Below, piece by piece: positions 55,161-58,273 of a DNA stretch of 64,000 nt. The notes under the pieces were generated by a model. It saw nothing but the letters and a program-made list of their open reading frames with translations, was not told the DNA's origin and searched no databases. This DNA is from Escherichia coli (lineage in GTDB: Bacteria > Pseudomonadota > Gammaproteobacteria > Enterobacterales > Enterobacteriaceae): assembly GCF_003018255.1 (NCBI RefSeq), contig NZ_CP027440.1. The stretch is one strand, 5' to 3'. The stretch's first letter is position 1. Every line of letters starts with the position of its first letter. Both the position numbers and the translations under genes were made by a program.

Positions 55161-56292
55161 GTCACGCGGTAACCCTTTTTCAATCACCCGAACCAGACGC
55201 TGTTTTTTGGGTAATTGCACTTCGACCACGCACGCATTTCGCCTCTCGATTTGCTGCGCAATCGCCCACGCTATGTGCTCATCAAGAAGTGGGTGCTCAC
55301 CTTTACGACTTTCCAGCGCTGTCAAAATCGTTTCATCCCAGGGGGCATTGCCTAATGCTACGGCGATATTACGCAGCCAACGCAGGTGACCTATACGGCG
55401 AATCGCCGAACCTTCCGTGACTTTTAAAAACTTCTCTTCACTCCAGGCGAATAACTCAATGAGTTCCGGTGCGTGTAGCGGCTTACGCGGGCTGAAATCG
55501 TCTTCTGTAGTGAGTTGCGAATAGCGATTCCACGGGCAGATAAGCTGGCAGTCATCGCAACCGTAAATACGGTTTCCCATTAACGGTCGCAACTCTTCCG
55601 GGATCGCCCCTTCCAGTTCGATGGTGAGATAAGAGATACAGCGGCGAGCATCGACGGTATATGGCTCGACGATGGCACCGGTCGGGCAAATCGTCATACA
55701 GGCCACGCATTTACCGCATCCTTCCTCGACTGGTTGATCCACGGGCAGCGGAATATCGACCAGCAATTCGCCTAAAAAGAAGAACGAACCGGCCTCGCGA
55801 TTGAGGATAAGTGAGTGCTTACCTGTCCAGCCAAGACCTGCTTTTTCAGCTAACGGGCGCTCGAGAATAGGCGCAGAATCGACAAACGGTCTAAAATTCA
55901 GCGAAACACAATGTTGCTGAATCATCTCGCCCAGCTTTTTGAGTCGGTTGCGCAGAAGCTTGTGATAGTCACGGCCCAGCGCATAACGGCTAACATAGCC
56001 GAGTTTGGGATTTTTCAGCGTGCTGGCAAATGCGGCGTTAGCAGGAAGGTAATTCATCCGAACGCTGATCACGCGCAGCGTACCGGGCAATAATTCGTGA
56101 GGACGAGCACGCAGCATACCGTGACGCGCCATCCAGTCCATTTCGCCGTGGTATTGTTTGTCCAGCCATGCTTGCAGTTTGGGCTCGGACGCGCTGAGAT
56201 CGGTATCGGTAATACCTACCTGCTGAAAGCCCAGTTCCAGCCCCCACTGTTTAATATTTTGCGCTAATTGATTGAGATCGAGGGGCTCTGAC

Positions 56293-56294
<2 letters not shown>
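55155..56294 (-). CDS. queG: epoxyqueuosine reductase QueG
   Basis: ORF 55155..56402; start at [12 protein letters not shown] gives 379 aa; 4Fe-4S ferredoxin-type cysteine motifs (CGKCVACMTICP, CDDCQLICP). Confidence 0.9.

Positions 56295-58273
<1,979 letters not shown>

Follow-up and report, generated by a model that had tools for sequence, protein, structure and literature searches.

The divergent queG and nnr genes of Escherichia coli overlap at their start codons and probably carry each other's promoters

Results

The queG and nnr start codons overlap within a conserved palindrome

The divergent queG and nnr genes overlap at their start codons in the window analyzed here (the whole 64,000-nt stretch of E. 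coli DNA), and this overlap is a real, conserved, and correctly annotated arrangement of two housekeeping genes. We assign a probability of about 0.75 to a model in which this conserved head-to-head overlap is accompanied by promoters that each lie in the coding sequence of the other gene, by a divergent-excludon architecture, and by translation of nnr mainly from the ATG at position 56293. The geometry, the cross-species conservation, and the Shine-Dalgarno energies come from the present analysis, the transcript ends and the dsRNA were taken from the literature, and we infer the choice of the nnr ATG in E. coli and whether the overlap has a regulatory effect at all.

Both in the list of open reading frames and in the annotation, queG (minus strand, 55155..56294; 379 aa, epoxyqueuosine reductase, beginning with MSEPLDL) and nnr (plus strand, 56293..57840; 515 aa from its first ATG, NAD(P)HX epimerase/dehydratase) are adjacent and head-to-head. 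As read directly from the sequence, both start codons are contained in the palindrome CATG at 56292-56295: the queG ATG is the complement of 56294..56292 on the minus strand, the first nnr ATG occupies 56293..56295 on the plus strand, and the 2 nt common to both are 56293-56294 (cf. the junction sequence, GAGGGGCTCTGACATGACGGACCATACAATGAAG). The same 2-nt overlap is annotated by RefSeq in K-12 MG1655, where queG ends at 4394067 and nnr begins at 4394066, and in ATCC 11775. A previous sequence-only reading of this DNA had claimed that the start codons at 56294 (minus) and 56293 (plus) are shared, and its coordinates proved to be exact. It had also stated that no intergenic promoter space is left, which was borne out, as the spacing is -2 nt, or 13 nt if nnr is read from its second in-frame ATG (codon 6, 56308..56310, plus strand), a possible secondary start five codons downstream of the first. 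Since either distance is too short for promoters, both of them must be intragenic whichever nnr ATG is used. The choice offered by that reading, namely that either nnr starts at 56308 or the promoters lie inside the neighboring coding sequences, was faulty as an either/or, though its second limb is supported by K-12 transcript ends, dsRNA, and synonymous-site conservation.

The sequence-only reading had proposed a check against K-12 data; the window is E. coli DNA, but 15 of 621 positions over 55800-56420 differ from K-12, with no indels. Its identity with ATCC 11775 is 100% for the 801 nt around the junction and only 98.7% for 3.3 kb, so it belongs to yet another strain of the species. Of 5425 complete E. 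coli genomes, 5248 share the 69-nt junction unchanged, while only 1051 of the complete genomes were at least 99% identical over the 801 nt surrounding it. For a wider comparison, 80 Enterobacteriaceae loci were fetched and aligned on the queG ATG, so that counts refer to 81 loci or species, 75 of which have a gap-free junction. The CATG palindrome is kept in 76 of the 81 species. Taken together with the near-uniform junction of the E. coli genomes, this argues that the overlap is not a chance feature. Third codon positions were regarded as conserved when they agreed in at least 95% of the 75 gap-free junctions (background 17%), and such positions clustered at four places: 55884-55902, 56262-56283, 56298 with 56301, and 56328-56334. 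The third of these places lies in the near-invariant ACGGACCAT (56296..56304, both strands), which encodes residues T, D, and H of nnr codons 2-4 and, on the other strand, forms the 9 nt directly upstream of the queG AUG. Because the same bases make up the queG start codon and leader, the conservation of CATG and ACGGACCAT cannot prove that the first nnr ATG is translated.

The start codon of queG

The assignment of the queG start to the ATG at 56294 stands and is well supported. From residue 6 on, the protein is homologous to the B. subtilis and S. thermophilus QueG proteins of solved structure, and the next methionine downstream is residue 52, inside the conserved domain. In-frame starts upstream of the ATG occur at inconsistent positions across species and are missing within 60 nt in 11 species, and in Citrobacter youngae a stop codon is placed 9 nt upstream of the ATG. 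It is highly improbable that queG is mis-annotated and begins at an upstream GTG (56339) or at a downstream start, which would make the overlap larger or abolish it. In favor of such an error, the mechanical open reading frame reaches a GTG at 56402 and includes the GTG at 56339, and the Shine-Dalgarno match of the queG ATG is close to nil (-2.2 kcal/mol in an anti-SD duplex). Besides the observations listed above, the transcript data speak against it: the minus-strand 5' boundary, as given in a published table (see below), maps to about 56318, downstream of the GTG at 56339, so this codon would not be present on the queG mRNA. With its position upstream of the mapped 5' end and no conservation of upstream starts, the GTG at 56339 was rejected.

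The minus-strand frame upstream of the queG ATG (56295-56402), antisense to the nnr N-terminus, is open for 36 codons in E. coli, which inflated the mechanical open reading frame to 415 aa. In 78 of 81 species this frame runs without a stop over 20 codons or more, and no start codon in it is conserved.

The start codon of nnr

A Shine-Dalgarno-like GAGGGG (56280..56285, plus strand) precedes the first nnr ATG by 7 nt and encodes QueG Pro4-Leu5 on the other strand. Its AGGGG part, which falls in the conserved third-position cluster at 56262-56283, is invariant, including the third position of the proline codon. The calculated anti-SD duplex amounted to -7.2 kcal/mol for the first nnr ATG and only -3.2 kcal/mol for the second. 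Compared with shuffled sequence, folding is less stable in both start regions (z = +1.7 and +1.66, the latter for the queG leader), as expected for accessible initiation sites, and RNA folding at the junction revealed no structure sequestering either start codon.

The sequence-only reading had proposed to compare the conservation of both candidate nnr starts across Enterobacteriaceae. Of the 81 species, 76 have the first ATG in the nnr frame. At the second position, a start codon is found in about 58 of 81 (ATG in 36, GTG in 16, TTG in 6-8), and in 4 loci it is the sole start. In the remaining species, about 22, it is occupied by CTG, CTA, GAG, ATA, or CTT (e.g., ATA in Citrobacter sedlakii, CTG in Cedecea, and CTA in Buttiauxella), and the reading frame from the first ATG is open in every one of them. 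No other plausible start than the first ATG precedes the conserved domain in these species. In Salmonella arizonae the first ATG is changed to ATT and a new in-frame ATG is found one codon downstream, and S. diarizonae has ATGATG at this place. The four loci that depend on the second position are those of Kosakonia cowanii, K. arachidis, K. oryziphila, and a metagenome-assembled genome (L055, L056, L062, and L063), in which one nucleotide inserted after ACGGACCAT shifts the first ATG to another frame, and Nnr must therefore begin at the second ATG. In these loci the first ATG keeps its Shine-Dalgarno sequence and heads an open reading frame of 20-21 codons that runs across the true nnr start, located 16 nt further downstream; this may be an upstream open reading frame serving translational coupling.

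Gene callers do not treat the two codons alike. Among the 120 closest protein clusters, 105 begin with MTDH or MMDH and 15 with MKKN, and for the same nnr genes (P0001-P0120) the predicted proteins are 515/507 aa long from the first ATG in NCBI PGAP and 510/502 aa long from the second position in Logan and ENA, i.e., the pipelines differ systematically. The supplements of TRAINSPOTTER, the Ribo-RET preprint, TetRP, Salmonella riboproteogenomics, INRI-seq, and Giess 2017 yielded neither ribosome-profiling nor N-terminal proteomic records of nnr or queG.

These data led us to consider the first ATG (56293) as the probable nnr start in E. coli. The sequence-only alternative of a start at 56308 is disfavored by the better Shine-Dalgarno match of the first ATG and by the about 22 of 81 species that lack a start codon at the second position. 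If nnr were translated only or mainly from 56308, yielding a 510-aa protein, the overlap would be an annotation artefact between genes 13 nt apart, and the first ATG would be kept as the complement of the queG start codon, which by itself fully accounts for the conservation of CATG. This reading could also claim the four Kosakonia-type loci, which demonstrably depend on the second ATG and thus make its use in E. coli possible, the choice of MKKN by gene callers in 15 of 120 clusters, and the occurrence of N-terminal tails of either length in homologues elsewhere. We nevertheless regard it as unlikely, since apart from the two points just named, Salmonella arizonae regained an in-frame ATG one codon after losing the first one, and a distant relative with a 6-nt gap between the genes and therefore no start overlap (L084, Nnr 45% identical) still begins with MTD. 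Less improbable, though still doubtful, is the use of both ATGs, giving Nnr forms of 515 and 510 aa that differ by MTDHT. Both codons are ATG and lie in an unstructured region, each position is the sole start in some lineage, and a start codon is kept at the second position in about 58 of 81 species; against this stand the weak Shine-Dalgarno match of the second ATG and the location of the five extra residues in a variable, probably disordered tail before the conserved domain, owing to which no functional difference between the two forms would be expected. An upstream TTG (56272) was also considered as the nnr start. It has no Shine-Dalgarno sequence, about a dozen of the 81 loci lack it, and it was excluded because Cedecea-type loci have a TAA stop codon between it and the first ATG.

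Published transcript ends place both strands under transcription at the junction

The overlap is already on record as a dsRNA cluster of RNase III. Huang et al. 2020 (PMC7373196) captured with p19 a dsRNA cluster, S-361 (4,391,754-4,392,109, U00096.2), which was labelled "yjeS, yjeF, 5' overlap" and was among the 20 most abundant coding-gene dsRNA clusters in stationary phase. In the supplementary table of that paper it is matched with the Lybecker dsRNA MS-212 (4391717-4392100) and with a Conway divergent operon overlap (4391701-4392114), the plus-strand operon being listed there as P 4391701 to T 4408049 (U00096.2). According to Conway et al., the 14-gene yjeF...rlmB operon is the most complex of their map. 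The same table of Huang et al. gives a sequenced 22-nt dsRNA pair, CAUGACGGACCAUACAAUGAAG, at 4392087-4392109, which we used to set the offset between U00096.2 and the window, K-12 and the window being aligned without indels. The transcript ends used here are thus RNA-seq operon boundaries quoted second-hand in the supplement of Huang et al., and the meaning of its columns is our interpretation.

Mapped in this way, the tabulated plus-strand start falls at about 55904/55905, inside queG and 388 nt upstream of the nnr ATG, which implies a long nnr 5' untranslated region (55905..56292, about 388 nt, plus strand; boundary 4391701) antisense to queG codons 1-130. The tabulated minus-strand start falls at about 56318/56319, inside nnr codon 9 and 24-25 nt upstream of the queG ATG, leaving queG with a short leader (56295..56318, minus strand; boundary 4392114) that has no clear Shine-Dalgarno sequence and is antisense to nnr codons 1-9. 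By these boundaries, the two mRNAs overlap by about 413 nt (55905..56318, both strands), and the dsRNA clusters S-361 and MS-212 span the same region, which would be a substrate for RNase III and a place of face-to-face promoter collisions. In the ExcludonFinder list for MG1655 (PMC12288877), queG-nnr is one of 16 divergent excludons, an independent source that agrees with this mapping.

A scan with Rfam E-values over 54200-56700 matched no RNA family to either the junction or the nnr leader, and reported only three tRNA-Gly genes and a sub-threshold match over them. The latter was to YrlA (Y RNA-like; 54724-54862, 40 bits against a gathering threshold of 69), extends across two adjacent tRNA-Gly genes, and is most likely due to the tRNA-like module in the YrlA model. 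The tRNA-Gly(GCC) genes are placed at 54466-54541, 54699-54774, and 54810-54885, and the spacer between the first and the second (54542-54698) exceeds that of K-12 and ATCC 11775 by about 119 nt, the long-spacer allele being present in 1606 of 5426 complete E. coli genomes (e.g., O145:H28). The literature locates the DnaA-inactivating datA locus in the glyVXY-queG interval. At the other end of queG, the 17-codon open reading frame yjeV (plus strand, about 55119-55172) overlaps the queG 3' end by 18 nt in convergent orientation, and yjeV-queG is listed as a convergent excludon (ExcludonFinder, PMC12288877). Downstream of the junction, the tsaE start ATG (57812) lies 29 nt inside the nnr 3' end (57812-57840) on the same strand, and it is annotated alike in K-12 and ATCC 11775.

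Candidate promoters within the coding sequences

Inside queG, the published plus-strand start is preceded by a conserved block, GGTCTAAAATTCAGCG (55882..55903, plus strand), which is invariant in all 75 gap-free species and contains the -10-like hexamer TAAAAT (55892-55897) in codons N133, F134, and R135. The hexamer lies 6-8 nt upstream of the published start, and the +1 position predicted from it (55904) is 1 nt away from that start. Within 55884-55902, six of seven consecutive third positions are conserved against the background of 17% (shuffle P = 0.015 for any such run), and Arg135 is held as the rare codon AGA, a synonymous site in the TAAAAT block. The hexamer matches the -10 consensus at 5/6 positions, and the best -35 element at only 3/6. 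It was published that yjeF-yjeE-amiB-mutL is transcribed in vitro preferentially by the sigma-70 holoenzyme.

Inside nnr, the candidate queG promoter is an extended -10 element, 5'-TGTGGTATACT-3' (56326..56336, minus strand), located in codons S12 (AGT), I13 (ATA, rare), P14 (CCA), and H15. TGTGGTATACT is invariant in 74-75 of 75 species, and the serine AGT, the rare isoleucine ATA, and the proline CCA are kept in equally many. It reads 5'-TGG TATACT-3' at 56334..56326, i.e., with TG at -15/-14 and the TAnnnT pattern, and its hexamer is placed 6-8 nt upstream of the minus-strand boundary tabulated as 4392114. The predicted +1 (56319) is G in 75 of 75 species and lies 1 nt from the boundary at 56318. 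The -35 element is weak (3/6). The conserved third positions at 56328-56334 form a run of only 3, which by itself is not significant, and distant Nnr proteins also share S-I-P-H as a conserved motif, an alternative cause of conservation at this site. In independent agreement with the mapped position, the primer used for a PqueG deletion in a 2024 datA study removes the equivalent of 56323-56353, inside nnr.

A consensus scan for sigma-70 promoters and terminators over 55700-56900 reported nothing. Both proposed promoters score 8/12, just under the cut-off of that scan, and they therefore rest on the published transcript ends and on conservation.

It is quite unlikely, in our view, that the nnr operon lacks its own promoter inside queG and is served instead by read-through from the glyVXY and yjeV promoters across the whole antisense strand of queG, i.e., as a "noncontiguous operon". 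Such an organization is indeed listed for yjeV-queG-nnr by ExcludonFinder (PMC12288877), and read-through transcripts from PglyVXY are documented in the literature. On the other hand, the Conway operon map, as quoted in the table of Huang et al., has a promoter at 4391701, the dsRNA cluster and the Lybecker dsRNA are listed there as beginning near this coordinate and not over all of queG, and the invariant -10-like block is found 6-8 nt upstream of the mapped start. Moreover, both sources of transcription can coexist.

The arrangement in more distant relatives

Wider relatives were obtained from a representative search and contig look-ups, the protein homologue search having returned only close Enterobacteriaceae. 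Three of them encode Nnr proteins that are 45-50% identical to that of E. coli. GCA_000429485.1 (L083, 2500-2503) has the same CATG overlap (-2 nt), and its upstream gene is QueG by Pfam. The metagenomic contig L084 (1903-1914) has a gap of +6 nt, and its upstream minus-strand gene is also QueG by Pfam, while in contig L087 (1080-1097; gap of +16 nt) the upstream minus-strand gene is truncated, has no domain annotation, and was assumed to be queG. In a reduced endosymbiont genome queG is lost. The near-zero spacing of queG and nnr thus appears to extend beyond Enterobacteriaceae, and far outside that family, too, the pair probably has intragenic promoters as a rule.

Discussion

The whole model that we favor can be described as follows. 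As there is no intergenic region, each promoter would be embedded in the coding sequence of the other gene. The nnr-tsaE-amiB-mutL-miaA-hfq... operon would be transcribed from a promoter inside queG (TAAAAT at 55892-55897, start at about 55904/5), and the resulting 388-nt nnr leader would run antisense through the first 130 queG codons. In turn, queG would be transcribed from the extended -10 promoter in nnr codons 12-15 (TGTGGTATACT, 56336..56326), with a start at about 56318/9 and a leader of 24-25 nt. The two promoters would face each other at a distance of about 413 bp, and the mRNAs, being complementary across both translation start regions, would give rise to the dsRNA whose formation and processing by RNase III are published. 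Translation of nnr would proceed mainly from the first ATG (56293) by means of the GAGGGG 7 nt upstream, and that of queG from 56294. Transcriptional interference and reciprocal expression of queG and nnr would be plausible.

The explanation of the overlap is already known from genome-wide studies, and the finding is real but ordinary. What the present analysis adds is (i) cross-species support for the first nnr ATG, (ii) the rare codons that hold both putative -10 boxes, and (iii) a frameshifted lineage that uses the second ATG.

The published boundaries and the conserved -10 blocks at both ends point to a long antisense 5' leader that overlaps the partner mRNA, and on this basis queG/nnr has the architecture of a divergent excludon. 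As in the Listeria mogR/fli paradigm, the pair consists of divergent neighbors with one long antisense 5' leader (388 nt here) and dsRNA processed by RNase III. Unlike in the paradigm, the queG and nnr products have no obvious opposing functions, and, in contrast to most excludons, even the start codons overlap. E. coli pairs with 5' overlaps and abundant p19-captured dsRNA, i.e., rhlB/trxA, rsd/nudC, and asd/yhgN (Huang et al. 2020, PMC7373196), belong to the same class. As that class is described, the overlap can lie only within untranslated leaders, whereas queG/nnr has no spacer and its promoters are wholly intragenic. The putative queG promoter also resembles extended -10 (TGn) sigma-70 promoters in its TGG-TATACT, its poor -35 element, and its distance of 6-8 nt from the 5' boundary, but it scores under the threshold of the consensus scan. 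Symmetric bidirectional promoters have divergent starts about 18 bp apart and a common -10 region. They share with queG/nnr the divergent transcription from very compact DNA, yet this class does not fit the pair, in which about 413 bp separate the starts and the promoters point toward each other, so that the transcripts overlap rather than diverge.

The practical value of these findings is small: the curated start coordinates of two core genes were confirmed as reasonable, and automatic gene callers were seen to differ on nnr (515 vs. 510 aa). The locus offers a clean example of promoters that appear to be written into coding sequences by rare codons. For genome engineering, this would mean that a deletion or recoding within the first 15 nnr codons removes the queG promoter, and that changes near queG codons 131-138 affect the promoter of the nnr-tsaE-amiB-mutL-miaA-hfq operon. 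A more speculative thought, which we hold to be rather improbable, is that the loss of intergenic DNA is a selected regulatory design and not mere compaction, in which the strong promoter of the nnr-hfq superoperon, on firing, would silence queG and the reverse. The two translation start regions would pair with one another in the dsRNA, and the silencing would work through colliding promoters and through cutting of the shared AUG/CAU by RNase III. If that were true, the signature of the design would be the invariant ACGGACCAT and the rare-codon -10 boxes throughout Enterobacteriaceae, and the recurring spacings of -2, +6, and +16 nt in relatives with 45-50% identity, and the maturation of queuosine tRNA would be coupled to the expression of the nnr-tsaE-amiB-mutL-miaA-hfq block.
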